This document shows, in pieces, positions 35,555 to 57,596 of a stretch of DNA of 64,000 bases. The stretch's first letter is position 1, and every line of letters begins with the position of its first letter. The DNA comes from a virus. Its lineage: Duplodnaviria; Caudoviricetes. The DNA is taken from IMG/VR virus record IMGVR_UViG_2932588108_000002, positions 26,603 to 90,602 of that record; one strand, written 5' to 3'. The notes beneath the pieces are model-generated. The model worked only from the letters and a program-made list of their open reading frames with translations, ran no database searches and was not told the DNA's origin. The position numbers were made by a program, and so were the translations under genes.

Positions 35555-35584
35555 GCGACGCTACGCACCCGCGCTCTGCATGGT
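35555..35584 (+). promoter_or_regulatory. Putative late promoter GCGAC-N19-CATGGT
   Basis: 7 nt before ATG 35592, no SD sequence. Confidence 0.6.
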
Positions 35585-35591
35585 CCGCGGC

Positions 35592-41500: not shown

Positions 41501-44500
41501 TGCGCTGGAGGCGGTACAGCCGCCGGAGCGGACCATCGGCCAGTTCACGCCCGAGATGGGCGCGCACTGGACGCCTCCGGAGCTGCTGCAGGGCTTCCTG
41601 CGGGAGTACCTGGGTGACCGGACCCTGCGCGTTGCGCACGATGACCGGTACGGCTGGGTTCTCAACACCGGCCGCGTGCCCGAGGCCAACAACGTCATGT
41701 ACGGCGTCCCGGCCAACCCGGAGAAGGGCACCAAGGGCAAGTCCGCCGTAGAGATCGCCCGCGCGGTCCTCGGCTTCGGATCGCTGACCGTCTACCACGA
41801 CGACAAGCGCAAGGACGTCGACGAGGCGACCTCACGTCTGATCCGGCAGAAGGCCGACCAGATGCGGGCCGAGTTCGCCAAGTACGCCACGGCGAACGCC
41901 GAGCGGCTGACGGTCCTCACCGAGTCCTACAACCGCATCATGAACGGGCACGTCGTCCGTTCGTACGAGGGCATGTCGCCCACCCTGGAGGGCTTCACGC
42001 CCGACAGGACCCCGCACGGCTGGCAGCTCGCCGGCGCCGCGCGGATGCAGTTCGAGCGGGGCGTGATCCTCGCCCACGAGGTGGGCCTCGGCAAGACCTC
42101 GACGCTCGTCATGGGCACCCAGGCGCTCAAGGCGTCCGGGCAGATCGAAAAGCCCATGGCCGTGGTGCCCAATCACCTGGCGAAGCAGTGGGCGGACGAA
42201 GCGCGGTACCTGTACCCGAACGCCGATATCCACCTGATCACCTCGGCGGACCTGGCCGGTGACCGGCGCTCCAGCACGCTGGAGTGGCTGCGCGCGAACA
42301 AGCCGGACCTGGTCATCTTCACCGAAGAGGCGTTCGGCTCCATCAAGATGAGTCCGGAGGCTCAGGAGGAGTACGAGTTCCGGGAGCTGGAGGCGCTGCG
42401 CGAGCAGCTTGACCGCCAGTACGAGGACGCCGACAACCCCAACCACCCGTTCATCGTCGCGAAGATCGAGCAGCGCATCGCGACGGTCCAGCGGAACATC
42501 AACAAGAACGCCGCGCCCATGCGGAAGCCGGGCGAGACGTACTGGGATGACCTCGGCTTCGACTACTTCGTCGTCGACGAGGCGCACCGCTACAAGGGCG
42601 TGGGCTTCCGCTCTAAGGAGGCCGGCGGCGACCCCGCGTCCATCCGCGGCGTCGACCTGCACCAGAAGACCACCGACCTGCACCGCCGCCGCCAGGGCCG
42701 CGCCACCATCACGCTCGCCACCGGCACGCCGCTGTCCAACAGCATCAGCGAGCAGTTCACCATGCTGCAGTTCGCGGCGCCGTGGGTGCTCGACGCGTAC
42801 AAGGCGGGCGCCCCGGACCTGTGGGCGAACACCTTCGGCCGCAAGACCCTGCGCATCGAGAACGCCCCCGACGGCTCCGGCCTCCGCGTCGTGGAGCGGT
42901 TCTCCGAGTTCCACAACAAGCGCGCCATGAAGACCATGTGGGGCCTGGTCGCGGACACCAAGCGCGCCGACGACGTCGGCATTCCCCGGCCGAAGCTCAA
43001 GGGCAACGCCCCCAACCTGATCATGGTCGAGGCCACGCCCGACCAGAAGCAGCGTCTCAAGGGGCTTGTGGCCCGCGGCCGCGCCATCCACAACGGCGAG
43101 CCTCAGCAGATCCGTAACCGCCAGGGCTCCCTGGTCGACGACAACATGCTCGCGGTGTCCAACGAGGGCACCAGCGTCGCCCTCGACCCGCGGCTCGTCG
43201 ACGCCAACGCTCCTGCGGGTAACAAGCTCAAGGCCGTCGCTGACCGGCACATCGAGCGCTACCACGCCAACAAGGACCGGGTCTACAAGGTCGCGTACGG
43301 CAGCGACGAGGACCACCCCGTCCGCGGCGCCCTCCAGATGGTCTTCCTGAACGAAGGCGTCCCGGACAGCGACAACAAGGGCGGCTTCGACGCCTACGCC
43401 CACCTCAAGCAACTCATGGTTGCTGGGGGCGTCCCCGAGGACAAGATCGCCTTTGTCCAGGATGCCAAGAAGTCCGGCAAGCCCGAGGACATGACAGAGC
43501 TCTTCCGGAAGGCCCGCGAAGGTGAAATCGCGGTCCTCATCGGCTCCAGCGCCGTCGCAGGCACGGGCATGAACGCCCAGGACCGCATGATCTCCCTCAC
43601 GCACGTCGACCTCGACTGGGGCGCCGCGCAGATGGAGCAGCGCAACGGCCGCATCCTGCGCTACGGCAACATGAACCCCGAGGTCGAGATCGACATCTTC
43701 GCGACCAAGGGCTCCATGGACGGCTGGAAGGCCGGATTCGTCGCCGCGAAGGCCGAGGGCCTGGTCGACATCCAGCGGCCCGAGCCGGAAGACGGCGACA
43801 CCAGCGACGTCGTTCAGGAGATCAGCGGCGGCGAGTTCGACTACGAGACCATGGAAGCCGAGATCGGCGGCAACCCCTACATGAGCCAGCTCATGAAGGC
43901 CCGCCGTCGGCTCAAGGACCTCGAGATCGACCAGCACAACGAGGCCGCCGAGCGTATCCGCCGCGCCGAAGCCCTCGATGAGCTGCGCCAGGAGGCCCAG
44001 GCCACCCGCGACGGCCTCGAACGCCGCGAGCGGGCCCTGCCCCGCATCCAAGAGGCCGGCGACCGCTTCACCATGACCATCGGCGGCTCCTCGTACGGCG
44101 AGCGCTCCGACGCTGGCAAGGCCCTGCACCGCGAGGTGACCGCCCGGCTCCTCGACCACAACCGCGAGGGCATGAGTCCCTGGCACATCATCGGCCAGTT
44201 CCGCGGCCTTGACTTCGGCGTGCGTACGGAGAAGCGGGAGGACGGCAAGCTCGTCGCACACGTCGGCTTCCCGGACCTCCGGAACTCCGACTTCGAGCGC
44301 ACGGTCGACGACCTGTCCAAGAAGGGCGCCGGGTCGGGCATGATCACCCGCCTCGGCAACGCCCTCGACAAGGCACCCGCCCTGCAGGAGTCCGACCGGG
44401 CCAAGGTCCCCGAGCTGGACGAGCAAATCGCCCTGCTCCAGTCCGCGCACGCCGCCGCAGACCTCACCCCGCAGATCGACCACGCGCGCGCACGGGCCAA

Positions 44501-47500
44501 CCTGCTCGAGGAGATCGTCGCCCGCATCACCGACCTCGACGCCAAGCCCGAGATCGACCCCAACGAACTCGACAAGAAGCGGTACAAGAAGCACGACCGC
44601 GAGATGATCGCGAAGGAGCGGCGCGAGGAGCGGGCACCGCTGCAGGCCGCGATCGACGAGGCCGTAGCGAACCTCCAGCGCTGGGACGAGCAGAACCCGG
44701 AACCGGAGAGGGACGACACCGTTCACCTCTCCGAGGACGAGGTACGCGACACCCTCGCGCGCCTGGCCCCCAACCCACCGGCGCACGACGCCTCTCAGGC
44801 CGACGACGGTGACGGCAACTCCACCGACACACCGGACGTCGAGGAGACAAACACCGCGGCGCCCGACAACGCCAGCGGTACAGGCGACGAGGGGCATTCG
44901 GCCGATACGCCGAGCACGGGCGACCTCCGCGACGAGAACGGCGACCAGGAGCAGGACGACACCGTTCGTCTCACTCAGGACGAGGTGGCCGACACCCTCG
45001 CCAGCATCCAGCCTGACGCCGACACGGAGAGCCAGGACACCGCGGACGCGGAGGAGCCCGGCGAACCGCTCAAGTACGCGTGGGACAAGCCCGAAGACTT
45101 CGTCACGCTCACCTTGCCGGCGGCACTCGTCGACTTCCTCAACGTCGAAGAGACCGCCGCCATGGAGGACCCGGACACCCGGAAGGCGCTCAAGGAGGCC
45201 AAGCCGGGCCGTAAGGGCACGCTCAAGGTGACGGGCCCCATCGAGGTGCACCGCGCACTCCTGGAGTGGGCGTGGGCGCTGGAAGGCGGCGAGGGCCTGG
45301 AGTCGGACCCGTCCGAGGTGCGCGCCTACCGCGCCTACCGCAAGGCCATCGACGAGGCCGGGGTCGAGCTGCGCCGCCGCCGCGCGGAGCGGGAGAGCAG
45401 CGACGGCGACTCCGCTGACGCCACCCCGGACGTCGACGTGCCGGACATCGAGGAGACGAACACCCCGGACGCTGCCAGCGCGGGCGACGGAGGCGACGAC
45501 GAGCCGCCAGCCGACACCCCGAGCACCGGCGACCTCGGCGACGACAGCAACGACGACCAGGGCGGCGACCAGAGCGAAGCTGACGACCAGGAGAGCACCG
45601 ACACCGTCACCCTGACCCCCGATGAGGTCAGCGACCAGCTCGACGCCGTACGGCCCGAAGGGTCGAAGGCTCCCTCGTCGATGGACGACGGGGAGATACG
45701 CGACGAGATCGTGGACCTGATGGGACGCGAGATGGCCAACGGCGGGGAACTGTCCGGCGTCGACCGCACCCGCCTGCAGGTCCTCGAAGCGGAAGAGGCC
45801 CGCCGCGCCGGCCGTGCGCCGAAGCCGGAGCCCAAGCCCAAGCAGCCCACGGAGGAGCCTGGCGGCCTCTTCGACGTCGACGAGCCGACCACCCGGCAGG
45901 CGGACAGCACCGCGGACCCGGACAACCCCGAGGACCAGCCTGACGACCTGTTCGGCACGCCGGACATGATCGCCGACCACGAGGGCCGCGATACCAGCGG
46001 TCTGCGCCCGGCGCGCATGCGGAACGCGTCCGACCTGGAGCCGGGCGACCGGTACACCGACGCCGACGGCCGTACGCGCACCGTGGCCGAGCCGCCGGTG
46101 CGTACTGGCCGCGGCCAAACCCGCATCGTCACCGACGACGGTGAGGAGCGCTTCTACAACGCCGACGCCCAAGTACGGCTGCGCTACCCGGACGAGGAGA
46201 TCCCCGAGAACGACACGGAGCTGCGTTCCGAGCCGGACGAGCCCCCGGTCGACGAGCCGGAGACCACCGCGGACAGCGGTCGCAGCGACATCAACGACCG
46301 CACCGACCGCATGTCCGACCTGGTGCGCCAGGCCACCGACGAGGCAGGCGGGGACGATCTGCCGGAGATCCGCGACGTCACCGACGCCATGGACCGCGCG
46401 GCGGACTCCGACGCCCCGCACGCCGAGCTCCGCGACGCCGCCGACCGGCTCGACTCCCTCGCCGAGATGTACGAACTGGGTGGCCCCGATGGGGAGCGCG
46501 CGGCCGAGCTGTTCCGCCGCGCCGCCCGGATGGCGCGGGGCGAGGACGACGACAGCAACGACCGCCGCGACGACGAGATCAACCGCGACGAGAACGAGAC
46601 CAACGTCCCGGACAACACCAGCGACAGCGAGGAGGACCAGGAGCAGGACGACGAGGGACGCCGGCAGCGCCGTGACGGCGACCTCGGGGGTGGCGCCGCC
46701 GACCCTGACGGGGGCGGAGCCGACACTCCTGACGCCCCGTCCGACGACGAGGAGAACAGCGACAGCTCCGACGATGAGCCGGACAACGCCGACGACCAGC
46801 AGGACGAGCCGGACGCCGAAGATCCGGACAACGAAGACGAGGAAGACGAACGGAACCGGCGCAGGCGTCGCCGGCGCCGCGGCAACGGTGGCCCCGGCGG
46901 TCCTGGTGGCCTCGGTGGGCCCGGCCTGCCGCACCTGAACCTGCCTGACTTCAACGTGCCGTCCGGCACCGGCGCCGACGGTGGCCACGGCAACGGGCCC
47001 ACTCCGCACGGCCGTGACCGTGACGGCGGCCGCCACCGTGACGTGGACTCCGTTCGCCGAGCCTGGAGGAACGGCGAAGGTCTCACCGCGGCCGAGGACA
47101 CCCCCGAGCGGCGCGCCGCCCTTGCTCAAGCCGCCGAGCGGGAAGGCATGGTTCTCTCCCCGGGCGGTGGGCTGGTGACATGGCCGGAGCCGCAGGACGA
47201 CGGCACCACCCTGTGGCGGTTCGCTCAGGCCCGCAACGGCACCAACCTGCCCGGCCTGACCCTGCGCACCGACAACCCCGAGGAGGCCCGCGCCCTTGCC
47301 GGGCGCTTCGAGGAGATCACTGGCCGCGACGGGCAGCCCTTCGACTGGCACCACCCGTGGGGACCCAGCACCGTACGCCAGTGGCGCGACAACGAGGGCC
47401 GCAACCTGCAGCTCGCCCTCCACGCTGCCCTCGACGACTTCGAGCAGCAGCGCTCCGCCAACACCGAACCGACGACGCGCGCCCTGCCGGACGACCTCAC

Positions 47501-50500
47501 GGAGCTGGACGACGACGCGCTGGTCGCGGCGTGGGGTGACGACCTCACCCCCGAAGACCAGATGCGCCTTATGCAGGAGATGGACCGCCGCGACGGCTAC
47601 ACCGACCAGCGTGTTCGCGACGCCGTCCCGGACACGCCGCCGGCCGACGCCGAAGAGGCGGAGAAGCGTGGCAGGGCCATGGACGAGGCCTTGGGCTTCG
47701 GGGGTACGGACGTCACCCGACCCCGCCGCACCCAAGAGGACATCATCCGCGCGGCGTTCGCCGACTTCGACGAGGCCCGCTACCAGCAAGCCATCGAGGA
47801 GACGAACGGCTACTTCTTCAACCGCAAGCACAAGTACGGCGACAACCGTCCGGACGAGCGCTCGCTGTTCTCTGGCGGCGAGTTGGCCAAGTTCGGGCGC
47901 TGGAGGCAGTACGCCAGTGAGGAGCTGGTCAACTGGTACGACGCCAACGGCGGCCGGATCACCTACAACCAGTTCAAGCTGCAGTACCGCGACAACGACC
48001 GCAGAGACCGGGAAATCTTCGAGGAGGAGCAGCGCCGACAGGCCGAGGAGCAGGGCCAGCAGGCGGACGCCGGGCAGTCCCCCGAGGAGCCCGCCACCGG
48101 GGACACCGAGCCGACGGCCGAAGGTACTGATGTCCCGGACGTGGATGCGGCAACGGGCTCGGACGCTCCGCGGTTCGCCAACGTCGATGAGGTCCGTGAC
48201 CGGTGGCGGCGCGGTGAACTGGATGAGCCGAGCCACCCCTCGGCGGTCCCGGAGGAGCGGTTCCGCGACCGCTACGCGGACAACCCCACGCTCGAGCTGT
48301 CCGAGGGCGGTCACCTGGCCATCCTCGGTGACGACGACCGAGGGGCAAGCTGGGACGTCATGGCGCCCGGGTCGATGGAGCCTGTCGCCCGCGCGTTCAA
48401 CCGCGACGACGCTCGCGCCTACGCCCGCATCCTCGAGGGAGTTCGTGACGAGGACGGGCACCCCTTCCCATGGGATGCTCCGGACGCGGCGGAGCGGGCT
48501 CGTACGTTCCGCGGCCCCAACGGGGAATCACTTGGCGAAGCCGTCGCCCAGCAGATCATCGACCGTGGCGAAGCCGAGGGCCTGCACAAGTCGTGGCAGG
48601 ACGACGCCCGTCTCTACCTCGACCGCGAACGGCAGTTGGATGAGCACTACGACGCTTGGCGTGCCCAGCAGGAGGCCGACGGGTACACCATCCCCGTCGA
48701 CGTCCGCGACGCTCAGGCCGGCGACGAGATCTCTGCGCTGGATCAGGACACCGATCACCCCGTAAGCCAGCGTGGTCGTCTCACCGGTCCGCTGCGGGCA
48801 AGGCACATGAACCGCACAGGCACCTGGCCGTTTACGAACGGCACGGACTACCGAGCGAGCATCGAAGGCAGGACTCAGGAGATCGACCCGTCCCGTGAGG
48901 AGAACCAGACACGCGAGACGCCGTTCAACTGGTTCTACTTCCGCAACACCCCGGACCGGCCCACGGCCTTCCGCCAGCCGCGCCCTGGCGAGGAAGAGCA
49001 GAACAATCGGGCAGAGACGCCGCAGGCCGAGCCCACCAGCATCCCGGAGCCCGCCGCACGGCCGGAGCCGACCCCGGACCGCGCCCCTGCGGAGCCAGAG
49101 CCTGCGACACCGGACGCCCCGGCCGACGAGCCGAAGGGCGAGCCCGAACCCGTGGGCGGCCAGCCCGCGAACTGGGCCCGGGTCTCGGACCTCGTGCCCG
49201 GCGACATGGTCCGCATGGACGGCAGGACGAGGAACGGGCGCGCCGTCACGCGAGCCGGGTACGTCTTCACGGCCCCGACGCGCGTGGAGGTCACCCGCAA
49301 CGGCCGCACCGTGCAAATGTGGCAGACGTACGTCACGGAGAACCCGGACGGCACCGGCAAGCGCGGCCACGTCTTCACGCCGCTCAACGCCACCGCCGCC
49401 CGCGCCGAAGCCCCGGACGACACCGTGCCCGGCTCCCCGGCCACCGGTGCCCAGGCCGCCATCCAGACCGGCAGCCTGCCCGACACGGTGCCCATGGATC
49501 GCAACGGCCGCGGCCTGTTCCCGGGCAGCACCGTCACCGGCGTTGACGGGCTACGCACCCGGGAAGGAACCGTCACCGGCGCCACCAGCACCACCGTGTC
49601 GGTGCGCTGGGACAACAACGACACTGCCGACGGCCTGTCGCCCAACACCCTCACGGTGACCGGCGGCGACCGCCCCGACGGCTGGACCGCATCCGGGCAG
49701 CGCGTCACTCCCGGGCACATCGTCACCGATACCGACGGTGCACTCCTCGGTCCCGTCGACGAGGTCAACGGCGACCGCGTCACCATCACTACCGCTGGGG
49801 GCACCATCAGCCGCAGCGCCGGAGACCTCCGCGTCGCCGGCGAAGTCCGTGACGACACCAACCCCGCCACCGCCCCGGTGACCGGGATCGACGACCCGAC
49901 GGCCGCGGACCTCAAGGAGGACGACGTCGTAGTCCTGGACCTCGACGGCACCCTCACCACCGTGGCGGTCACCGGCACCCAGCGGGACGGCGACCGGGTC
50001 ACCATCGACTACGCCGACACCACCACAGGCGAGATGGGCCAGATCGACGTGGACGCCACCACGGTCCTCCCGCGGGCCCAGGGCGCCAACGGCCACGCCC
50101 CCGACCTCGGCCCGGAGGACGCCCCGGACACCCCGGACGACCTGACGGTGCACGAGCCGCCGCACCGCGTCGAGCCGGTCACCGGCCCGACCGTCGACCC
50201 GGAGCTGACCACGACCGACCGGGACGTCATCGGTGATCTCGCCGACGCCCCGGACGATGACCCGGACGCACAGCAGGGCGCCGTGCGTATCACCGCGGAC
50301 CTGCCCGTCACCCCGGAGCAGGCGACCGCGCTCGCCGCACAGCTCCGCGACTCGGCAGACCAGTCGACGCCCGAGGGCCGTGCCGCGCTGCGCGCCGCCG
50401 ATCACCTCGACCGCGCCATTGGCCGCACGCCTCCGGAAGAACTCGGCCGTCCGCGACCGTCCAACGCTTCCCAGGTCGCCGAAGACGACACCATTGCCCT

Positions 50501-52616
50501 CCCGGACACCCGCGGCAACGGCGTGACCGTCTACCGGGTTCGTGGTGTCCAGGACGGTCCCGGCGGAGTCCGTTCCCTTCTGCTGGAAGGGGAAGACGGC
50601 CGTACGCGCCGGCGTGTGGTCCACAGTGCAATGCCGTTGTGGCAGCTCGGTGAGCCGCAGCCCGACGGCGCCAACACTGCGCTCGTCCCCGGCCCTGACT
50701 CCCCGGCCGGTGCGCCTCGCGACCCGAACCCGGCGCCGCAGGCCGACGTCGACCGGATCGTCGCCGACCACCCCCGGGCGGTCGCCGCGCGCATCATCGA
50801 CGAGGCGATAGCCGGTACCGAGCCGCCCAGCGACATCCACGCCCTTCGTGAGCAGATCGCCCAGCGCCTCACCGCCGATGCCCTGCGCGATGCGCGGCAG
50901 GCAGCCCGACAGGACGCCTCCGCCGCCCTGGACGCCGCGGGCATCACCGGCCGGGACCGGGCCGCAGCACAGCAGGCACTCAAGCGGGCCCGGCAGGACG
51001 CCCACGCCGCGACGGTGCGCGCCGCCCTGCGCACGATCAACGACCTCGAGCCCCTGCCCGACGAGAGCGACGAGGACCTCGCCGCCCGTGCCCGGGATCT
51101 GCTCAGCCTCATCCCTGACCAGATCGCAGGCGCCCCCAACGGGCCGGACACCGACGGCGACACGGACGTCAACCGCACCGTCGCGGGGCACGTCGACGAC
51201 GCGGTAAACACCGTGCTGCAGCAGCTCCAGGCGGCAGGCGTGGACCCGGGTGACGCCGAGAGGATCGCCCGGACCCTCACCGGGCACATGGACGGCTCCC
51301 GGCAGGCCACGGCCCGCCAGATCGCGCGGCGCGTCGCCGCGGTGTCGCCGCAGGCCGGCCGCCAGCCGGGCCTGCTCGCCCGGATCGTCGCGGCCCTCGT
51401 CCGCCTCGCCAAGCGTCTCGCGCTCCTGGTGAAGGCCGGAGCGGAGAAGATCGCCGAGAAGTGGCGGGACGCCCGGGAACGCACGGCGAGACTCCGCGCC
51501 TTCCTCGGTCGGCTCGCCCGTCGAGTCCGGGAATGGCCGGAGTCCCGGCGCCTGGCGCGCCTGCACCGCGCGCTCGACCTGCCCGCGGCCGACGGCGAGT
51601 CCCTGGTCGCCCGGGTCTCCCACTGGGCCGATCTGCTCCCGGAACCCGGCCGCTTCGGACAGGCGCAGCGGCGCGTCACCTGGTGGCAGCCCACGACGTG
51701 GGCGCAGCTCGCCGCCGGGCGGCTCCCCGGGCGTAGCGACCGTGTCCGCTGGGCCCCGGACCAGGCCGCCGACAGTGGCCCCGGCCTGACCGGGCTTCGC
51801 CACATGGCGGCCCTGCGGGCGGCCGGCGGCGACGTCGACGAGGCGGTGACTCGCCGTCTCGCCGACACCCTCGGCGACGACTTCGGGGGTGACCCGCACG
51901 GCACGCTCCAGCACGCGGACGACTACGTGGCCGCCACCGAGCGGCGCCTGGTCAACCTGCAGGCCGCGCGCAGCGGCTCCACCATCCCGGATGACCCGGA
52001 CCTCGAGGTGGAGATCGCCGCGGCGCGGATGGAAGCGGCGGCCGCGCGCCGGGAGTGGGAGGACCTGCGGTCCCGGTGCGCCGCGGCGGTGCCCGATGCG
52101 GTCGCGGCCGCGCTCGCCGAGATCCGCGACATGGGCCCCGGGGGCAACGCCAGCATCGTCTTCGGTCCGGACAGCACCCCGGACGCCGAGCGGGCCGTAC
52201 GGGGCGTGCAGCGCCTCGTGCCACGTTCGTGGCTCAACACCCCGGCCGCGCGCCGCGTGACCGCTGTGAACGGCGACGAGGGCCGCTACGAGCCCGACGG
52301 GCAGCGGATCACAGTCGCTGACCTCGCCGACGAGGGGCTCGGCACCGCCGGGCACGCGCTCGCGCAGCATCTCGCGCAGCACCTGGGCGACTTGGATGCC
52401 GCTCAGCGGATCTTCTGGTTCACCCAGACCCACACCGGCCGGCCAGGCGCCCGCCGTATGCGGCGCAGCGCCCTGAGCCGTCTCCTGTCGCGGCAGCAGA
52501 CGCAACCGGACACTGGTGACACCCTCGCCCGGTCTGTTCAGTCGATGTTCAACGGCGACTGGTACTTGGACGACGACCTTCGGGCGTTCCTCCTGGGCCT
52601 GCTCGCCACACGATGA
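35592..52616 (+). CDS. Giant (~5,674 aa) DarB-like polyvalent protein: N6-adenine MTase + SNF2 helicase, repeats, degenerate C-terminal zincin-like domain
   Basis: WNPALHPRDSKGRF near N-terminus; MTase WSGWG, HYTP, VLEAGSGAG, IGNVPF; SNF2 AHEVGLGKT, VDEAH, ATGTP, QRNGRILRYGN. Codon bias begins near 35592, not at 35133. Confidence 0.9.
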   Translation: MLNRPTAQAESQDLNRDLEVKVTRRPWNPALHPRDSKGRFIETGGTVRLWGGKLARVVRALPHDRVLVQDQSGPNEFRGRRHTTSAKWVTMVARPDGTAPTEDENKVVAEDERRHKDPRRGNGVARDDDGDPDTPNDPHDVDDQGRPIGDDEGDGPHDEDDQDEPEDGAHPVNLDALPNQQNAAGARYADTAAVRRHFTKLAEQPGTKPEMGTFLRSVAHDDDLRVTPNGRFAILRDDNGRWYLTATGTGQRMDGAGDFDTPQDAARFAKHLDKTAVNGRLTQFNQPFDFSDPQLDRAARDWRSTKGENIQGAIIRARKEFDATPAPAAAPRAPADSPADGNGQRFSTLQAVRAHWQQRLDQINDMGPDSLREQRAARHLEGLISNDRIKLVGHGQFVVGQDQNGEWYLVATGSGLPLRRRWTSQRDAQAFAQSFTENAPMGDDGKPLDLSDPNTRIATWRSNDNRSISEVIDAAAEKFQRGNAAEGAPAANPAPTAAPETPAAPQAPETPEVPQAPALPGNAEPVDGVDGYHYVNHGGAITLYGPDGQVAATSERGYPPKVTIDGVVVPVPQYPPQGAQVMARLHLAAQNPQKRDRVTAAWVMKPGKNGQPAKRVMVFRGTIKGDQRDYDAIGSTKAIKWAPTMGPVGSWQTQANMTDATRDERISEVLAKLARQGRNVHVTDETTQGTPDAPGDGGDETAALRREISDATDPQLDRMKNERYAKYRTSRSEANRRRINQEIDLITEEQKRRRQERDEAAIRDASQLSDADIEARVKESQQERGMYGSRRGEPANDVERAIYHERRRRSQALADDNTDLTTMAEEDLAKARDDVAHRVTLHQAAGDDHEAEQTVRAALQKRHDAIVGEQQRRRAEQIADRPPVADLTDDELSEEYNELIRRDFRKASPEAQRVLEGRLEDIKQERREREKRAITDRDTPDAVDSKKLLDEYTELRRGRSSYEADDVKAAREARMAAIEAELNRRDTTPEVEQLLARVDNPDSNGQISIDGGSGYGYIDYNQTLGRDRRAYGWTWGKNSWGHGSAVYPSRAAALAAMVRAYDQDPDTRGERTWGRERRVFVPKMFVELYQTARLGDRLSNASEERQYLFHLFRDRYGWDDGVNPLVPSNKKGHHIKGRNLVIPEGLLAELHRVTEELSRDMSVQAADRDADKSDRAKAKTRLASINVALHAIESAREAVRKNGGNDDQKVISREEIEAQQAALRAALGGDDDEHVQPDGPGSLADVPAAGVGGDGRSGGVRGDEGQGDREPDSGRGAGAGGDGAGAGGLRRGGRPAQADQGGRDGDGSGGASARAGAGGGEGARADADGAAPAGDQGRDVRRVARFRPDPADAPKGARARAAANVEAIKVLKKLEAENRPATDDEKRILARWSGWGSVPIIFASEPNEKEPRYQQGGTRYGKFAKDHERWSEYSDIRSELQRVLTPVEFRQASRGVLSMHYTPQPIAEAMWDGLRAFGFDRGDVLEAGSGAGTFFGVAPDGARLTGVELDPTTARIAQAIYPHANVLNESFAETDARPGTFDAAIGNVPFARVPFDDKRYPAESLHNGFVTKEIALVRPGGITAVITSRQTLDSKGDKARRQMAKYGDLVGAVRLPSGVFNDAGTGVTTDVLVFRRREDGTEPADTSWLDAPERDINGTPHHINAYFDEHPEHILGTLTTQSGPYGPEVTVKGDPAKAAEQLRHALEEIAEKAKADGRGYEPHPDGDNRPPVHLQTAREKHANDWTGRLYEGDDGQFYQHVNGAEPVLIDPADGNTAQLRDLMRLRDVAAELRELDRKNDEEERAEALRAQLRDLHAAYVEKYGPLSKPGQHRTKSGRPTAWGYFRADPDAAAVLALERWDAKNGQPVLSRIFTERAAARRRQLTSTDDPKAALAAVVAAHGEVDLGEVARLLDVDPQEALKRLGNEVFTNPDTGRLELASGYLSGAVRDKLATARKAAEKDPAYAVNVAALEAVQPPERTIGQFTPEMGAHWTPPELLQGFLREYLGDRTLRVAHDDRYGWVLNTGRVPEANNVMYGVPANPEKGTKGKSAVEIARAVLGFGSLTVYHDDKRKDVDEATSRLIRQKADQMRAEFAKYATANAERLTVLTESYNRIMNGHVVRSYEGMSPTLEGFTPDRTPHGWQLAGAARMQFERGVILAHEVGLGKTSTLVMGTQALKASGQIEKPMAVVPNHLAKQWADEARYLYPNADIHLITSADLAGDRRSSTLEWLRANKPDLVIFTEEAFGSIKMSPEAQEEYEFRELEALREQLDRQYEDADNPNHPFIVAKIEQRIATVQRNINKNAAPMRKPGETYWDDLGFDYFVVDEAHRYKGVGFRSKEAGGDPASIRGVDLHQKTTDLHRRRQGRATITLATGTPLSNSISEQFTMLQFAAPWVLDAYKAGAPDLWANTFGRKTLRIENAPDGSGLRVVERFSEFHNKRAMKTMWGLVADTKRADDVGIPRPKLKGNAPNLIMVEATPDQKQRLKGLVARGRAIHNGEPQQIRNRQGSLVDDNMLAVSNEGTSVALDPRLVDANAPAGNKLKAVADRHIERYHANKDRVYKVAYGSDEDHPVRGALQMVFLNEGVPDSDNKGGFDAYAHLKQLMVAGGVPEDKIAFVQDAKKSGKPEDMTELFRKAREGEIAVLIGSSAVAGTGMNAQDRMISLTHVDLDWGAAQMEQRNGRILRYGNMNPEVEIDIFATKGSMDGWKAGFVAAKAEGLVDIQRPEPEDGDTSDVVQEISGGEFDYETMEAEIGGNPYMSQLMKARRRLKDLEIDQHNEAAERIRRAEALDELRQEAQATRDGLERRERALPRIQEAGDRFTMTIGGSSYGERSDAGKALHREVTARLLDHNREGMSPWHIIGQFRGLDFGVRTEKREDGKLVAHVGFPDLRNSDFERTVDDLSKKGAGSGMITRLGNALDKAPALQESDRAKVPELDEQIALLQSAHAAADLTPQIDHARARANLLEEIVARITDLDAKPEIDPNELDKKRYKKHDREMIAKERREERAPLQAAIDEAVANLQRWDEQNPEPERDDTVHLSEDEVRDTLARLAPNPPAHDASQADDGDGNSTDTPDVEETNTAAPDNASGTGDEGHSADTPSTGDLRDENGDQEQDDTVRLTQDEVADTLASIQPDADTESQDTADAEEPGEPLKYAWDKPEDFVTLTLPAALVDFLNVEETAAMEDPDTRKALKEAKPGRKGTLKVTGPIEVHRALLEWAWALEGGEGLESDPSEVRAYRAYRKAIDEAGVELRRRRAERESSDGDSADATPDVDVPDIEETNTPDAASAGDGGDDEPPADTPSTGDLGDDSNDDQGGDQSEADDQESTDTVTLTPDEVSDQLDAVRPEGSKAPSSMDDGEIRDEIVDLMGREMANGGELSGVDRTRLQVLEAEEARRAGRAPKPEPKPKQPTEEPGGLFDVDEPTTRQADSTADPDNPEDQPDDLFGTPDMIADHEGRDTSGLRPARMRNASDLEPGDRYTDADGRTRTVAEPPVRTGRGQTRIVTDDGEERFYNADAQVRLRYPDEEIPENDTELRSEPDEPPVDEPETTADSGRSDINDRTDRMSDLVRQATDEAGGDDLPEIRDVTDAMDRAADSDAPHAELRDAADRLDSLAEMYELGGPDGERAAELFRRAARMARGEDDDSNDRRDDEINRDENETNVPDNTSDSEEDQEQDDEGRRQRRDGDLGGGAADPDGGGADTPDAPSDDEENSDSSDDEPDNADDQQDEPDAEDPDNEDEEDERNRRRRRRRRGNGGPGGPGGLGGPGLPHLNLPDFNVPSGTGADGGHGNGPTPHGRDRDGGRHRDVDSVRRAWRNGEGLTAAEDTPERRAALAQAAEREGMVLSPGGGLVTWPEPQDDGTTLWRFAQARNGTNLPGLTLRTDNPEEARALAGRFEEITGRDGQPFDWHHPWGPSTVRQWRDNEGRNLQLALHAALDDFEQQRSANTEPTTRALPDDLTELDDDALVAAWGDDLTPEDQMRLMQEMDRRDGYTDQRVRDAVPDTPPADAEEAEKRGRAMDEALGFGGTDVTRPRRTQEDIIRAAFADFDEARYQQAIEETNGYFFNRKHKYGDNRPDERSLFSGGELAKFGRWRQYASEELVNWYDANGGRITYNQFKLQYRDNDRRDREIFEEEQRRQAEEQGQQADAGQSPEEPATGDTEPTAEGTDVPDVDAATGSDAPRFANVDEVRDRWRRGELDEPSHPSAVPEERFRDRYADNPTLELSEGGHLAILGDDDRGASWDVMAPGSMEPVARAFNRDDARAYARILEGVRDEDGHPFPWDAPDAAERARTFRGPNGESLGEAVAQQIIDRGEAEGLHKSWQDDARLYLDRERQLDEHYDAWRAQQEADGYTIPVDVRDAQAGDEISALDQDTDHPVSQRGRLTGPLRARHMNRTGTWPFTNGTDYRASIEGRTQEIDPSREENQTRETPFNWFYFRNTPDRPTAFRQPRPGEEEQNNRAETPQAEPTSIPEPAARPEPTPDRAPAEPEPATPDAPADEPKGEPEPVGGQPANWARVSDLVPGDMVRMDGRTRNGRAVTRAGYVFTAPTRVEVTRNGRTVQMWQTYVTENPDGTGKRGHVFTPLNATAARAEAPDDTVPGSPATGAQAAIQTGSLPDTVPMDRNGRGLFPGSTVTGVDGLRTREGTVTGATSTTVSVRWDNNDTADGLSPNTLTVTGGDRPDGWTASGQRVTPGHIVTDTDGALLGPVDEVNGDRVTITTAGGTISRSAGDLRVAGEVRDDTNPATAPVTGIDDPTAADLKEDDVVVLDLDGTLTTVAVTGTQRDGDRVTIDYADTTTGEMGQIDVDATTVLPRAQGANGHAPDLGPEDAPDTPDDLTVHEPPHRVEPVTGPTVDPELTTTDRDVIGDLADAPDDDPDAQQGAVRITADLPVTPEQATALAAQLRDSADQSTPEGRAALRAADHLDRAIGRTPPEELGRPRPSNASQVAEDDTIALPDTRGNGVTVYRVRGVQDGPGGVRSLLLEGEDGRTRRRVVHSAMPLWQLGEPQPDGANTALVPGPDSPAGAPRDPNPAPQADVDRIVADHPRAVAARIIDEAIAGTEPPSDIHALREQIAQRLTADALRDARQAARQDASAALDAAGITGRDRAAAQQALKRARQDAHAATVRAALRTINDLEPLPDESDEDLAARARDLLSLIPDQIAGAPNGPDTDGDTDVNRTVAGHVDDAVNTVLQQLQAAGVDPGDAERIARTLTGHMDGSRQATARQIARRVAAVSPQAGRQPGLLARIVAALVRLAKRLALLVKAGAEKIAEKWRDARERTARLRAFLGRLARRVREWPESRRLARLHRALDLPAADGESLVARVSHWADLLPEPGRFGQAQRRVTWWQPTTWAQLAAGRLPGRSDRVRWAPDQAADSGPGLTGLRHMAALRAAGGDVDEAVTRRLADTLGDDFGGDPHGTLQHADDYVAATERRLVNLQAARSGSTIPDDPDLEVEIAAARMEAAAARREWEDLRSRCAAAVPDAVAAALAEIRDMGPGGNASIVFGPDSTPDAERAVRGVQRLVPRSWLNTPAARRVTAVNGDEGRYEPDGQRITVADLADEGLGTAGHALAQHLAQHLGDLDAAQRIFWFTQTHTGRPGARRMRRSALSRLLSRQQTQPDTGDTLARSVQSMFNGDWYLDDDLRAFLLGLLATR
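39286..39621 (+). CDS. TnpV-like protein nested in the +1 frame of the giant ORF
   Basis: GGGAGG RBS (39272-39277); MNMFSPMVRDHWRMYRPQEWAAMDDPEAFV...EGYDAAVGRLKQIRADATAMVLAELL; GC3 bias moves to this frame. Confidence 0.7.
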   Translation: MNMFSPMVRDHWRMYRPQEWAAMDDPEAFVETKAREIESRILVAEQALEETVPEPEGYDAAVGRLKQIRADATAMVLAELLPEPEPEAEKAPEQTPMEQHLQEIRDAMYDA

Positions 52617-52624
52617 GGAGAGCA

Positions 52625-52900
52625 ATGATGCCGTTCACCGTCACCGGAGCATTCGATGACGGAGCGACCTACAGCGTCCAGGTCACCGGGCGGGCCGACC
52701 GCCCGGCGATCGGGTCGCACCGCGCCGCGGCCCTGGTGGACCTCCACCAGGGGGAGCCCATCACCCTGTCCCCAACCGGCCCCGTGCGGACGGTCGCCGG
52801 GGATGATGAGGCGACCGTGCTCGCCGTACTCCGCGAGCACACCCACTTGATCGACGAGGGGCAGGGCGCGCCCCGGCAGGCACGCGTGCCAGAGAGCTGA
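52625..52900 (+). CDS. Small hypothetical protein after the giant gene
   Basis: GAGGAG RBS; good codon bias. Confidence 0.7.
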   Translation: MMPFTVTGAFDDGATYSVQVTGRADRPAIGSHRAAALVDLHQGEPITLSPTGPVRTVAGDDEATVLAVLREHTHLIDEGQGAPRQARVPES

Positions 52901-52909
52901 TCCGAGGGG

Positions 52910-52927
52910 CTTGCACAATTGTGCAAG
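52910..52927. repeat. Perfect 18-bp palindrome CTTGCACAATTGTGCAAG
   Basis: Read directly; related copy at 60046-60063. Confidence 0.8.
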
Positions 52928-52955
52928 AACGCCCGTGAGGCGACGGGGCGAGGCC

Positions 52956-52985
52956 GGGACACAAACGGCTTCGCCCCTCCATCCT
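52956..52985 (+). promoter_or_regulatory. Putative late promoter GGGAC-N19-CATCCT
   Basis: 6 nt before GTG 52992. Confidence 0.55.
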
Positions 52986-52991
52986 CCGCCC

Positions 52992-53606
52992 GTGACCAGA
53001 TACGGATACGCCATCAAGGCTCTCCCCAAGAAGGGCGGCAAGCCGTTCGGGGAAGAGGACGACGAACAGACCACGGACACCGGCGAGGAGACGCTCGACG
53101 ATGACCTCGACCCCGCGGCGCTCGCTGAGGAGACGCCCAGCGATCCGGCCGATCCGACCGCCCCGGGCGCACCTCCAGCAGACCCGGCTGCTCCGGACCC
53201 GACCGCACCGCCGGAGCAGCCCACCGAGGCGCCCGCCGACGGTACGCAGCCGCCCGGCAACGAGCCTCCGGCCGATGCCCCGGAACCACCGTCCGACGAC
53301 GCCCGCCAGTGGGCGGGTGATCCCTACGACGAGGGCGACGAGACGGACCCGGCCAACGCCTTCGCCTCCTACACCGGCAGCAACGGCGAACAGGCGTGGC
53401 TGGATCAGGACGCCGACGGCACACTGACCGGGTGGGTACGGGATGGGACGGGACAGGTGTGGCGTTACACAGACCCGGACGCGTGGGCGATCGACGTCGA
53501 CGACGCCCACATGACGCAAACGCACAGCAAAGCCGACGAGGCCGCCAGCCCGCCCCAGGCCGCTCCTGCGAGCGACCGCGGCGTACAGGACTCGATGTTC
53601 CAGTAG
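52992..53606 (+). CDS. Acidic Pro-rich hypothetical head-region protein
   Basis: VTRYGYAIKALPKKGG, P/A/D-rich linker, Trp-rich C-terminal domain. Confidence 0.7.
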   Translation: MTRYGYAIKALPKKGGKPFGEEDDEQTTDTGEETLDDDLDPAALAEETPSDPADPTAPGAPPADPAAPDPTAPPEQPTEAPADGTQPPGNEPPADAPEPPSDDARQWAGDPYDEGDETDPANAFASYTGSNGEQAWLDQDADGTLTGWVRDGTGQVWRYTDPDAWAIDVDDAHMTQTHSKADEAASPPQAAPASDRGVQDSMFQ

Positions 53607-53618
53607 GGAGCTGACGAC

Positions 53619-53828
53619 GTGCAGTTGAACCGTGCGACCGCCCTGCGGTTGCAGCAGGAGGGCAAGACCGCCTATCAGGCCGGCGACCCGGGCAACGCCA
53701 GCCCGTACGACCGCCTCGGGAATGCGGAGCAGCAGTTCGGCTATCGCTACTGGATGCGCGGCTGGTCCATGGCTCGCTCGGAGGCTGAGGACGCCCAGGC
53801 GGAGCCTGCGGCCAGCACAGGACACTAG
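53619..53828 (+). CDS. Rmf/CrpP-fold small protein
   Basis: QEGKTAYQAG...SPY...YWMRGW matches the GxxAxxxG...PY...WxxGW pattern; GGGAG RBS. Confidence 0.6.
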   Translation: MQLNRATALRLQQEGKTAYQAGDPGNASPYDRLGNAEQQFGYRYWMRGWSMARSEAEDAQAEPAASTGH

Positions 53829-53848
53829 ACAGACGCGAACGGCACGGT
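53819..53848 (+). promoter_or_regulatory. Putative late promoter AGGAC-N19-CACGGT
   Basis: Same spacing; upstream of the protease gene. Confidence 0.45.
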
Positions 53849-53887
53849 GCCCGGCGGCCCACTGTCCACCGCCGGAGGTTTCCCGCC

Positions 53888-56083
53888 GTGCCGAGCGCTC
53901 CACCCACAAGATCGTCACACCCAAGCACCCTGCGAGGCACCAGCCGGGCAATCTACGCCGTCACTGGTGTGGTCGACGAGGTCAACGACCTCATCGTCCC
54001 CGGTGCCTTCGCTCACACCCTCGCCACCCGCCGTGTCAAAGCCGTCTGGCACCACGAATGGAAGGATGCCGTCGGCGTCGTCCTGGACGTCGAGGAGTGG
54101 ATGCCCGGCGACCCCCGGTTCGCCGAGATCCCCAACTGGCCTGCCGAGGCCGGCGCCCTGGTCGCAACCGTCGAGTACAACCGACGCACCAGCAAGGGCC
54201 GCGACACCTACGAGCAGGTCAAGCAGTGGTACGAGCACGGTGAAGCCGCCTTCTCCATCGGCTACCGCGTACCCACGGACGGGGCCACCCGCCGCGCTGA
54301 CGGCGTCCGCGTCATCCACCGACTCGACCTGTTCGAGGTCAGCCCCGTCCTGCACGGCGCGCACCCCATGACCCGGGCGCTCGAGGTGAAGGCCGCGGCC
54401 AACCCCGGCATGGAGTACAAGGCCACCCCGAGCCCCGTCGAACTCGAAGCCGTGAAGGACGAGGACCGCATCAAGGTCGCGGGCCTGGCCCTCAAGGCAG
54501 CCGACACCAGCCGCGTATTGCTCATCCAGCGCGCCCTGGAAGACGACGATCCGGCGGCCGGCACCTGGGAGTTCCCCGGCGGTCACCGGGAGAAGGACGA
54601 AGACGCCCTCGCCGCGGCCCTGCGTGAGTGGCAGGAAGAGACCGGCGCAGACCTGCCGGGAACGGCAAGCATCGTCGGCTCCTGGACCGCCCCGAACGGC
54701 ATCTATCGCGGCTATGTCGCGGTCATCCCCAGCGAGTCGGCCGTCTCGCTCAACCGACCCCACGATGAGCGGCTCGTGGCCAACCCCGATGACCCGGACG
54801 GGGAGGCCACAGAGGTCACCGCCTGGTGGCCCATCACCGCCCTCCCCGACATGTCGCTGCTCCGGCCGGAGTGCCGAGACACCCCCTGGTCGCTCCTGGC
54901 CGGTGCCACCCTGCCCCAGGGCCCGCCGAGCACACAGGCCAGTCCCGAAGCCCAGCAGTTCGCCGCTGGTGTGATGAACACCTTCGCCGCCCTCGGCGGA
55001 GAGAAGAAGTCCGCGCGGGCCACCGTGGCGGCCGCCCGCATCCACGGATCGCGGATCGAGCACAAGTCGGCCCGCGCCATGGTCGCTGAGGCCAAGGCCG
55101 CCGGGGGCATGGACCAGGACCGCGGCGACGCCGAGCAGTTGCGGCACTGGTACGTCCACGGCGAAGGCGGCGCCCAAATCGGCTGGGGCACCCCCGGCGA
55201 CTTCGACCGCTGCGTGGGCATCGCCGGACGCCACATGAGCCCGGACAACGCCAAGGGCTACTGCAACCTGCGCCACAAAGACGCCTTGGGGATCTACCCC
55301 GCCACCCACGCGGCCGAGAGCAAGAGCGCTCGCCGCGCCGTCCTGGAAGCCAAAGCCCGCCTCGCTTCCCCTGGAGAGCCCGTGAACACGATCCAACCCC
55401 TTCCCGCCTCGTTCGAGCAGATCCGCGACCGACTCGGCCAAGCCGTCCGCACCCTCCTCGCCGCGGAGGAAGGCACGTGGGCATGCATCCAGGGCACCTA
55501 CCCGGACCACGTCATCGCCTCCGTCCACGCCGACGGCGAAGACGAGCAGCACTACCTGGTCCCGTACACGCTCGGAGGAGACGGCGACGGGGACGACGTG
55601 GCGCTGGGGCAGCCGCAGCGCGTGGAGCTGGCAACCGTGGTCGTCCCCGATGAGGACGACGGCCCGCGCGAGGCAGACGAGGACGAGGAGATCGACGCCC
55701 GCGTCGTACAGCCCACTGTCGACGCGCTCAGCGACGCCGCCGCCCGTATCAGCACCTCGGACGCGAACCCCGGCCAACTCGAAGGCGTACGCGACAAGGT
55801 GCGCGCTCTCATCAGGGCCCTGTCTGCCAAGGGACTCGACGTCGACCAGCCGCCGAAGCAGCCCGCCCCGGCACCCAACCGCGCGGCCGGCCCGACCGGC
55901 ATGGACCTGTGGGACGAGTACCCCTTCGACGATGAAGGCGACGACGAAGTGCCCACCGAGGACGGGACCTCGAGCGAAGGCACGCCCCCCGAGGACGCCG
56001 TCGACCAGGACAAGGAGGACCCCGGCACAGTGCGGCTGGACCCGGACGAGGTGAAGGCCGCACTCGCCTTGCTGCAGGGCTGA
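53888..56083 (+). CDS. HK97-type prohead protease fused to NUDIX hydrolase, an unknown Cys/His domain and a scaffold-like tail
   Basis: DLIVPGAF, WHHEW, FSIGY, LFEVSPVLHGAHPMT; Nudix box FPGGHREKDEDALAAALREWQEETG; WGTPGDFDRC...KGYCNLRH; acidic tail. Confidence 0.88.
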   Translation: MPSAPPTRSSHPSTLRGTSRAIYAVTGVVDEVNDLIVPGAFAHTLATRRVKAVWHHEWKDAVGVVLDVEEWMPGDPRFAEIPNWPAEAGALVATVEYNRRTSKGRDTYEQVKQWYEHGEAAFSIGYRVPTDGATRRADGVRVIHRLDLFEVSPVLHGAHPMTRALEVKAAANPGMEYKATPSPVELEAVKDEDRIKVAGLALKAADTSRVLLIQRALEDDDPAAGTWEFPGGHREKDEDALAAALREWQEETGADLPGTASIVGSWTAPNGIYRGYVAVIPSESAVSLNRPHDERLVANPDDPDGEATEVTAWWPITALPDMSLLRPECRDTPWSLLAGATLPQGPPSTQASPEAQQFAAGVMNTFAALGGEKKSARATVAAARIHGSRIEHKSARAMVAEAKAAGGMDQDRGDAEQLRHWYVHGEGGAQIGWGTPGDFDRCVGIAGRHMSPDNAKGYCNLRHKDALGIYPATHAAESKSARRAVLEAKARLASPGEPVNTIQPLPASFEQIRDRLGQAVRTLLAAEEGTWACIQGTYPDHVIASVHADGEDEQHYLVPYTLGGDGDGDDVALGQPQRVELATVVVPDEDDGPREADEDEEIDARVVQPTVDALSDAAARISTSDANPGQLEGVRDKVRALIRALSAKGLDVDQPPKQPAPAPNRAAGPTGMDLWDEYPFDDEGDDEVPTEDGTSSEGTPPEDAVDQDKEDPGTVRLDPDEVKAALALLQG

Positions 56084-56306: not shown

Positions 56307-57596
56307 ATGCCCACCAGCCGTATCGAGGAACTACAGAAGGCACTCCAGCTCAAGTCCGCCGAGGCCGAGCGCATCAGCCAGACCTTCAAGGTCGAGGACG
56401 GCGGCCAGTTCGTCGTCTCCAGCGAGCAGGCGAAGGCCTTCAAGAAGGTCTCTTCGGAGGCCGCGGAGATCAAGAGCCTCATCGACGCCGAGCAGGGCCT
56501 GACCGAGATCAAGCAGTACCTCGACGCCCCCGTCGCGCCGCCAGCCGCGGCCACCCACTACGGGCAGCGCTCCGGCGTCGAGGAGAAGTCCCTCGGCGAC
56601 CTGTTCGTCGAGTCCGGCTCCTACCAGCGCGCCACGCAGGCCGAGTTCCGCGACAAGCCGTACATCCGCGCCGACATCGAGGGGAAGTCAATCTTCTCCC
56701 TGTCCGCGGGCTCCGTGACCCACCAGGTCCTCGGCTCCGCTCAGAACCTCGGGATCGCCGAGCGCCCGTTCCGCAAGTTCCACATCCGGGACCTGTTCCC
56801 GAAGTCGACCACCAAGAACTCCGTGCTGTACGGCGCGCGAGAGACCGGCTGGACGAACAACGCCCGCCAGGTCAAGGAGCGGTACGCCGCGGACGGCACG
56901 TCGCCGGCCACCGGCGCGGACACCGACACCTGGGGCCGCGCCCCGCGGTCGAAGCTGAGCCTGACCCCGGTGATGTACCCGGTCGCCGAGGTGGCGCACC
57001 TGCTCGACGCGCACAAGAACATCCTGTCCGACGAGCCGCGCCTGAAGACCTTCATCAACACGCGCATGGTCGAAGGTGTCAAGTACGCGGAGGACTGGGA
57101 CCTGCTGCACTCCGTCGGCGACGGCCAGTCCCTCACTGGCATCTACAACACCCCGGGCGTCCAGCAGTACACCGGTCTCGCGACCGACCAGTACAGCGTC
57201 CAGATCCGCAGGTCGATCACCAAGGCGTTGCTCGCCGAGTACGACCCCACCGGCATCGTCCTGTCCCCGACGATGTGGGAGCACGTCGAGGTCGAAGAGG
57301 ACAAGAACGGCGCCTTCCGCGTCGCCATCGCCGTCGCCATCGGCGCGGAGAAGAAGGTGTGGCGCCTGAACGTGGTCGAAACGACCGCGATGGCCGACAC
57401 CGACTTCCTCATCGGCGCCTTCGGTCTCGGTGCGCAGCTCCACGACCGCGAGAACGTCTCCGTGACCGTCTCCTCGGAGAACGCGGACAACTACGAGAAG
57501 GGCCTCATCACCTTCCGCGCCGACGAGCGCCTGGCGCTCGAGGTCCCCCGTCCGGAGTCCTTCGTCATCGGCACCTGGACCACGCCGACCGGCTGA
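56307..57596 (+). CDS. HK97-fold major capsid protein
   Basis: IRDLF, RETGWTNNA, ILSDEPRLKTFINTRM, GIVLSP..W, WRLNVVET, ERLALEVPRPESF; AGGGAG RBS. Confidence 0.93.
   Translation: MPTSRIEELQKALQLKSAEAERISQTFKVEDGGQFVVSSEQAKAFKKVSSEAAEIKSLIDAEQGLTEIKQYLDAPVAPPAAATHYGQRSGVEEKSLGDLFVESGSYQRATQAEFRDKPYIRADIEGKSIFSLSAGSVTHQVLGSAQNLGIAERPFRKFHIRDLFPKSTTKNSVLYGARETGWTNNARQVKERYAADGTSPATGADTDTWGRAPRSKLSLTPVMYPVAEVAHLLDAHKNILSDEPRLKTFINTRMVEGVKYAEDWDLLHSVGDGQSLTGIYNTPGVQQYTGLATDQYSVQIRRSITKALLAEYDPTGIVLSPTMWEHVEVEEDKNGAFRVAIAVAIGAEKKVWRLNVVETTAMADTDFLIGAFGLGAQLHDRENVSVTVSSENADNYEKGLITFRADERLALEVPRPESFVIGTWTTPTG

Follow-up and report, generated by a model that had tools for sequence, protein, structure and literature searches.

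A peptide at the end of a prohead protease fusion recurs inside a giant DarB-like phage protein: a candidate head-loading signal in relatives of Streptomyces phage Gilgamesh

Introduction

To our knowledge, the entry of very large ejected proteins into the phage head has been described for only a few of them, namely the T4 internal proteins, P1 DarB and N4 vRNAP, and we know of no sequence rule by which packaged cargo could be predicted. The encapsulin cargo peptide is short, sits on a flexible linker and docks cargo on the inner face of an HK97-fold shell, and the C-terminal part of the HK97 protease, examined by Duda et al. in 2013 in work on the functional domains of gp4, is said to be a targeting segment. 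Here we analyse a stretch of 64,000 nucleotides (hereafter, the window) that comprises bases 26603-90602 of the 90,602-base virus record IMGVR_UViG_2932588108_000002 (69% G+C), in which the peptide that ends a prohead protease fusion protein recurs three times within a giant DarB-like protein. Unless a relative is named, all positions are numbered from the first base of the window.

A segment of HK97 gp4 is reported to carry green fluorescent protein into HK97 shells (PMC11626933). The SPN3US protease is described as probably targeted by its C-terminal propeptide, and the capsid targeting sequence (CTS) of T4, found in IPIII and Alt, as a short peptide that targets proteins to the prohead (PMC7411985). 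For phage P1, the first 30 residues of DarB are reported to suffice to load a reporter, and its authors found no consensus among the Dar proteins (PMC9024508). In the satellite SaPI1, CpmB is reported to carry the C-terminal RIIK motif of the 80alpha scaffold and to bind the same site on the capsid protein (PMC6893505). Finally, JC1 gp69, a giant DarB-like protein homologous to the one studied here, is listed among the virion proteins identified by proteomics, with 51 unique peptides (PMC9144972).

Results

The original prediction, made from the letters of the window alone, had placed one peptide at the end of the prohead protease and three similar ones in the giant protein, and all four translate exactly as it gave them and where it gave them. 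The protease tail motif, TVRLDPDEVKAALALLQG, begins 18 residues before the stop codon (56027..56083, plus strand), which follows it directly (56081-56083). The giant copies, also on the plus strand, lie at residues ~3047, 3128 and 3342 of 5,678. Copy A, TVHLSEDEVRDTLARL (44718..44765), stands directly after the helicase module; copy B, TVRLTQDEVADTLASI (44961..45008), follows it; and copy C, TVTLTPDEVSDQLDAV (45603..45650), which is succeeded by an invariant RP.G..APS, is the most widely kept of the three, with a homologous module in 5/5 further genomes searched. The pattern TV.L..DEV had four matches in a six-frame translation of the window and of the whole 90,602-base record, only at 44718, 44961, 45603 and 56027, whereas composition would lead one to expect 0.0023 matches among the 181,200 six-frame residues, and 0.0006 and 0.0001 for the giant and the protease, respectively. 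When the giant was shuffled, at least one match arose in 10 of 20,000 shuffles. Copies A and B are identical at 36/48 nucleotides, indicating a recent internal duplication, and the three giant copies therefore do not represent three independent events. The tail and the giant copies share 26-29/48 nucleotides, so that their likeness lies at the protein level and does not reflect a recent transfer of DNA.

To avoid circularity, we scored the motif with a matrix of 16 columns built from protease tails only, using 19 of the 25 tail-bearing sequences described below and leaving out Gilgamesh and five near-duplicates (L006, L007, L027, L029 and L031). On the window genome, this matrix gave 53 bits for the tail and 26.4, 24.5 and 17.0 bits for copies A, B and C, respectively, and the next best site in 155,396 six-frame residues of open reading frames (ORFs) reached 1.6 bits. 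The comparison of the window's own tail with the locally shuffled giant gave P = 0.004, 0.004 and 0.010 for the three copies. Two hmmsearch approaches were set aside: a profile of all copies was dropped as circular, and a tails-only profile reported no domain in the 5,838-aa open frame of the giant, yet found copies in truncated relatives, which is why the position matrix was used instead.

Conservation was assessed in 29 loci, consisting of the window, Streptomyces phage Gilgamesh, 12 IMG/VR loci and 15 loci from Streptomyces genomes. The tail was present in 25/29; three of the tail-less loci match only the NUDIX part of the fusion and are different proteins, and the fourth is cut by a contig end. 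The region of the giant copies was readable in 23 of the 25 tail-bearing genomes, the other two having too little upstream sequence, and at least one giant copy of 10.7-29.9 bits was found in 19/23. Among 10,869 non-giant ORFs from 39 loci, the highest score was 10.0 bits and the 99.9th percentile 2.5 bits. Giant copies were kept in lineages whose proteases are ~46-52% identical to that of the window, and their number was three (the window, L004-L007, L027 and L029), two, or one (Gilgamesh and others). In two ~125-kb contigs that were scanned almost end to end, the motif occurred only in the protease tail and the giant, and the next best sites reached 5.0-5.5 bits. Among 19 aligned protease fusions (44-95% identical overall), E721, V722, K723 and L726 of the tail were invariant and V715 and A727 nearly so.

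Two irregular cases were noted during this survey. In L031 (11870-11980 of that locus), the protease ORF extends ~16 residues past the usual tail end, so that the motif is not strictly C-terminal there; this could be a stop-codon loss or a sequencing error. The G004 giant contains a match to its own protease tail at aa 2239 (P = 0.008), which lies, by position, between the methylase and helicase modules; it was not counted, and the same place in G001 scores 22 and is not significant.

The original prediction had described the surroundings of the giant copies as acidic low-complexity linkers, and this holds: the 40 residues before each copy contain 12-17 D/E and 0-7 K/R, and the flanks have a predicted local distance difference test score (pLDDT) below 50 in AlphaFold2 models. 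A model of the last 230 residues of the protease (model A3, mean pLDDT 63.8) shows a small alpha/beta domain predicted with confidence, followed by 60 residues with pLDDT<50 and by the predicted tail helix, which closes the chain at residues 218-229 of 230 with pLDDT ~63-65. The low-scoring segment (model residues 153-213) corresponds to a disordered acidic linker before the tail (55847..56026, plus strand), which has 17 D/E in its final 40 residues and varies in length and sequence among relatives. A second model, covering 455 residues of the giant (model A4, mean pLDDT 58.7), places helices at residues 25-35 (copy A), 106-115 (copy B) and 320-329 (copy C), and the giant flanks fall below a pLDDT of 50 at residues 37-99 after copy A, on both sides of copy B and at 284-313 before copy C. 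The predicted helix begins at motif position 6 in 4/4 copies. The three parts of the motif, T-V-x-L, S/T/D-x-x-E and V...L..hydrophobic, read as a short extended strand, an N-cap and an amphipathic helix of 10-12 residues; capping box and hydrophobic staple are the names of such helix-start signatures. A helix between flanks of pLDDT<50, seen in 4/4 copies, is what one would expect of a linear motif on a tether.

When the giant linker from 11 genomes was aligned, copies A, B and C stood out as conserved within acidic sequence that is rich in indels, and in the same alignment copy B and the small domain that follows it come and go as a cassette. That domain, located between copies B and C (45090..45419, plus strand; residues ~144-253 of model A4), is predicted to be folded, with pLDDT blocks of 77-93 and dips to 58-63, and is conserved where present; it matched no Pfam or PHROG family. 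In L031 and L008, copy B and the small domain are absent together, and in L009 (1208-1270 of that locus) a single hybrid copy, in which the start of A is joined to the end of B, replaces separate copies A and B. In these alignments, the copies behave as recombining repeats. Further conserved islands in the variable giant linker, G-L-F-D-V-D and F-G-T-P-D-M, which include invariant columns, lie after copy C (window 45770-46000). In the protease linker, a G-M-D-L-W-D segment (window 55900-55925) has invariant L674, W675 and D676, and its DLWD did not recur elsewhere in the genome.

The tail belongs to a single 731-aa ORF (53888..56083, plus strand) that joins an S78 prohead protease, a NUDIX domain, an insert domain, a C-terminal domain, the acidic linker and the tail. 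The protease part matched Pfam Peptidase_S78 (PF04586) at 8.3e-11, above the cut-off, and the NUDIX part at 5.8e-16; the PHROG matches were to head maturation protease, NUDIX and phrog_6439. The fusion is 63% identical to Gilgamesh gp52, and its N-terminal region aligned with HK97 gp4 by BLASTP (E = 2e-4). The C-terminal 230 residues gave 0 matches at E <= 0.001 in a structure search of the PDB, and their sequence profile gave only weak matches to designed repeats among PDB entries; this region is called 'scaffold' for its position only. The enzyme domain behind the protease is swapped among relatives, being NUDIX in the clade of the window (window 54503-54844) and a 2H/LigT-type phosphoesterase at residues ~204-325 in L010, L012 and L030 (Pfam 2_5_RNA_ligase2, ~4e-14), and the protease, C-terminal domain and tail stay while it changes. 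An insert of ~80 aa (phrog_6439) is present in some relatives only and aligns on either side of K-S-A-R, a segment that is repeated. The fusion has the look of a vehicle for interchangeable enzymes that may be delivered.

Three E-x-K-S-A-R sites (E372, E391 and E477; 55001-55012, 55058-55069 and 55316-55327, plus strand) lie at domain junctions of the protease fusion and are candidate autoprocessing sites; 0.08 were expected, and the three are kept in the protease alignment. The pattern E.KS[AL][RG] had four matches in six frames of the genome, these three and the EEK-SLG described below in the capsid gene (56580-56591), and the capsid has further E-x-K-S at residues 54 and 125. In the giant, there were 0 sites of this E-x-K-S type against 0.46 expected. 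The sites in the fusion and in the capsid suggest E-x-K|S as a cleavage consensus, and the fusion may be autoprocessed into a protease-NUDIX part, the insert domain and a fragment of ~250 aa that bears the tail. The major capsid protein itself is of the HK97 type, with an N-terminal delta (scaffold) domain (56307..57596, plus strand; Pfam Phage_capsid 3.5e-28), and its gene begins 224 bases downstream of the protease fusion. Capsid profile matches to solved HK97 capsid chains reached ~1e-32, one of these being labelled 'Scaffolding domain delta'. The capsid sequence EEK-SLGD is invariant and aligns with FNK-SLGS of HK97 gp5; by analogy with the HK97 capsid cleavage position, cleavage is likely between K94 and S95 (56588|56589).

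The giant polyvalent protein has 5,678 aa (35580..52616, plus strand). Its open frame begins at 35133, but the most likely start is the ATG at 35580, whose methionine lines up with the start annotated for Gilgamesh gp48. Homologous giants in relatives have 4,458-6,065 aa, those of G001 and G004 having 5,693 and 6,065 aa, respectively. A 2020 paper names proteins of more than 4,400 aa as the largest in any actinobacteriophage (PMC7302621), and the giants of the window, G001 and G004 all exceed these. The giant contains an N6-methylase and superfamily 2 (SF2) helicase module (40176..43667, plus strand), with Pfam matches, in the numbering of the 35133 frame, to N6_Mtase at aa 1682-1827 (20.7 bits, cut-off 20.4) and to SNF2-rel_dom, ResIII and Helicase_C at aa 2307-2845. 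In tblastn searches, a 1,400-aa methyltransferase (MTase)-helicase query was 29-32% identical over 96-98% of its length to proteins annotated as DarB-like from Bcep22-like and other phages, and the methylase part was 31% identical to darB of P7, a relative of P1; 137 phage records matched the query, many of them annotated as DarB-like, P7 darB included. The DarB-like label of the original prediction is supported by these matches: an N6-adenine methylase and an SF2 helicase are joined in one polypeptide with ~32% identity over 97% of the query to DarB-like proteins and 31% to the P7 methylase part. Outside this module, the giant matched no PHROG or Pfam family. Near its N-terminus (window ~35690-35760, residues ~37-60), W-N-P-x-L-H-P-R-D-S-x-G-R-F-[IV]-E-T-G-G is near-identical in 4/4 giants checked.

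Similarity and synteny identify this region as the head module of a Gilgamesh relative. Its order is portal-MuF, an SNase-like ORF, the giant, three small ORFs, the protease fusion and the capsid. The portal protein is fused to a MuF-like domain (31764..34226, plus strand; Pfam Phage_portal 3.5e-41, Phage_Mu_F 2.3e-4) and is syntenic with Gilgamesh gp46, annotated as 'portal and MuF-like fusion protein'; the syntenic Gilgamesh genes further include the adaptor, tail terminator, tape measure and tail genes. A small SNase-domain ORF between portal and giant (window 34228-34581; Pfam SNase 6.4e-7) and a methyltransferase-NUDIX fusion upstream of the portal (window 29443-30675) are both without the motif, and the three small ORFs between giant and protease matched no family in Pfam or PHROGs. 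In seven of the Streptomyces-derived loci (L025, L028, L032, L033 and L035-L037), the related element lies on contigs of 121.9-126.4 kb, close to the 129.1 kb of Gilgamesh, and these elements may be separate replicons or whole-genome contigs rather than integrated; the L029 element sits inside a 10-Mb chromosome.

Discussion

The peptide at the end of the protease fusion matches the three giant copies in sequence, is conserved, is exclusive to these two proteins and stands in each case as a predicted helix in a disordered linker. We consider it a reasonable possibility, although one that we would place slightly short of even, that the motif is a flexibly tethered peptide that the protease and the giant have in common for docking in the procapsid, and through which both are loaded into the head. 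This reading draws on the S78 protease, the delta-domain capsid and the K|SLG site, which make the system HK97-like; on the tails-only matrix, with which the giant copies reach 17-26 bits and no other site in the genome more than 1.6; on the conservation of the tail while the linker before it varies; and on the presence of the homologous giant JC1 gp69 in virions together with the CpmB/80alpha precedent. From these observations we infer binding to the capsid or core, packaging of the giant and its ejection, in the following manner. The protease tail would anchor the fusion inside the procapsid, either on the capsid delta/scaffold domain, on the inner face or on a protein core there, and the one to three internal copies in the acidic inter-domain linkers of the giant would bind the same site. 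The ~620-kDa giant, which is encoded between portal and protease, would thus enter the head as this assembles, held by the avidity of several weak contacts, and would later leave the head with the DNA. A wider claim, that Gilgamesh-like Streptomyces phages load a DarB-like polyvalent enzyme of ~620 kDa into an HK97-type head by copying the docking helix of the protease/scaffold into its linkers, in one to three copies, as a modular, duplicable and internal tag, is one that we advance with slightly less assurance, as plausible but somewhat less likely than not.

Several observations weigh against docking. Four of the 23 assessable genomes keep the tail and the giant without a copy of at least 4 bits, G001 and G004 having none and G003 and G006 a degenerate copy C. 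The co-conservation in homologues that the original prediction had proposed as a check was thus seen for the tail and for the majority of the giants but broke down in these four, so that the giant gene can evidently be retained without the motif. Own-tail scans in Cantare and ChisanaKitsune, two more distant S78 phages, gave nothing above shuffles in 2/2, and a tblastn search with the 23-aa tail against 50,697 phage records matched only Gilgamesh, indicating a lineage feature and no general rule. The lysine that is invariant in the tail (E-V-K) is absent from the giant copies, and the core L-[STD]-x-x-E-V belongs to the generic signatures of a helix start. The tail and the giant copies covary only weakly, the independent changes being too few for a verdict: in one clade both have isoleucine as their final residue, a pattern that G003 contradicts. 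Finally, the first ~60 residues of the giant are the best conserved part that we saw in it, kept in 4/4 giants including that of the distant, motif-less G001, and are unlike the protease tail. Because P1 DarB is reported to be targeted by its N-terminus (PMC9024508), this region is a rival packaging signal; by analogy, it may be the primary one, with the internal copies auxiliary.

The motif could instead be a docking or cleavage signal by which the prohead protease acts on the linkers of the giant, the protease copy being an autoprocessing or pseudo-substrate site, and we regard this as unlikely. The copies do sit at domain boundaries in linkers, Burro gp27, a giant actinophage protein, is described as virion associated and likely processed (PMC7302621), and SPN3US gp245 is reported as a case of a prohead protease that removes its own C-terminal propeptide (PMC7411985). 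However, E-x-K|S, which occurs at the capsid boundary and at three junctions of the fusion and which the giant lacks, is the likelier consensus; a cleavage site would not call for as many as 16 residues conserved with a helical periodicity; and the giants of G001 and G004 are without the motif. Such a signal could also coexist with docking, because the T4 targeting peptide is likewise cut off.

Equally improbable, in our estimate, is that the motif binds a partner other than the capsid, either helix to helix, with the giant recruited via the protease fusion, or as a ligand of a host factor after ejection, in which case the NUDIX or 2H enzyme and the modules of the giant would be brought to one target. 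Acidic disordered tethers with a short amphipathic helix at their end commonly serve to recruit partners, the exchangeable NUDIX or 2H phosphoesterase domains look like delivered effectors, and the exclusivity of the motif to two proteins would suit this explanation as well. Nevertheless, this explanation lacks a candidate for the partner, the persistence of the tail with each of the fused enzyme domains suits a role in assembly better than one tied to a particular enzyme, and the helix-helix version is a variant of head loading and no true rival to it. We give least credence to the absence of any shared function, with stable N-capped helices ending acidic linkers through convergent structural needs and internal duplication: the generic L-[STD]-x-x-E-[V] helix start, the duplicated copies A and B, the degenerate copy C in G003 and G006 and the lack of copies in G001 and G004 would accord with it, but T1, V2, L13 and the hydrophobic residue 16 outside the cap are also shared, scores of 17-26 against 1.6 bits in 155,396 residues are hard to explain by a generic cap, no match of at least 10 bits occurs elsewhere in two ~125-kb genomes, and the motif is kept across lineages with ~46-52% protease identity.

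If the motif does dock both proteins in the procapsid, it would be the first sequence-defined targeting signal common to an assembly protein and an ejected cargo; packaged cargo would become predictable from sequence, and a portable tag would be available for bringing foreign proteins into actinophage capsids. The shared peptide also draws attention to the protease fusion itself as a carrier of exchangeable NUDIX/2H phosphoesterase enzymes that would be delivered with the DNA. In Gilgamesh, which can be cultured on Streptomyces lividans, the peptide offers a concrete target for mutation, with which loading by docking-helix copying, the avidity of several copies and the portability of the tag can be tested. 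Should binding not be found, the peptide would still be a clearly delimited linear motif, conserved in phage proteins that are among the largest recorded.

Among known systems, HK97 resembles this locus in its head genes: here too, an S78 protease is encoded just upstream of an HK97-fold capsid with an N-terminal delta domain and a K|SLG site, and in both proteases the sequence closes with an acidic stretch and then a helix-like segment of hydrophobic character. The protease described here differs from gp4 in its fusion to NUDIX (2H phosphoesterase in relatives), an insert domain and a C-terminal region of ~250 aa, and BLAST gave no alignment between the C-termini of the two proteins. We know of no second HK97 protein that repeats the gp4 tail. 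The giant itself resembles Bcep22 gp75 and JC1 gp69, with ~32% identity over 97% of the MTase-helicase query; these are proteins of more than 4,500 aa that are encoded in the virion module and have been detected in virions, although they belong to podophages of Proteobacteria with another head-gene context. The locus is set apart from encapsulins, whose shells have no portal, tail or DNA packaging, by its portal-MuF protein and by the tail genes in the syntenic Gilgamesh, and we know of no sequence likeness of the motif to encapsulin peptides.

The T4 CTS and P1 DarB share with the present case that short peptides bring ejected proteins into the prohead, and P1 DarB is a methylase-helicase like the module of the giant. 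Their signals, however, are N-terminal, single-copy and not common to the protease, whereas the candidate here is internal and present in one to three copies. As regards mimicry of the coat-binding peptide of a scaffold, the nearest precedent is 80alpha and CpmB, where, as here, the same motif stands at the C-terminus of an assembly protein and in a second protein; CpmB is a size-redirecting scaffold of a satellite and carries its motif C-terminally, whereas here the second protein would be the phage's own cargo, with internal copies, and the two motif sequences are unrelated. The original prediction had presented the packaging tag as one not known to be described. That is too broad, because head-targeting peptides and scaffold-tail mimicry are already known, and it stands for the narrower arrangement: a literature search of main texts yielded no account of a protease tail repeated internally and in several copies in a giant cargo, and no paper on Gilgamesh. 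The candidate signal differs from those of the known systems in being internal, in being present in one to three copies and in matching the protease tail of the same phage.

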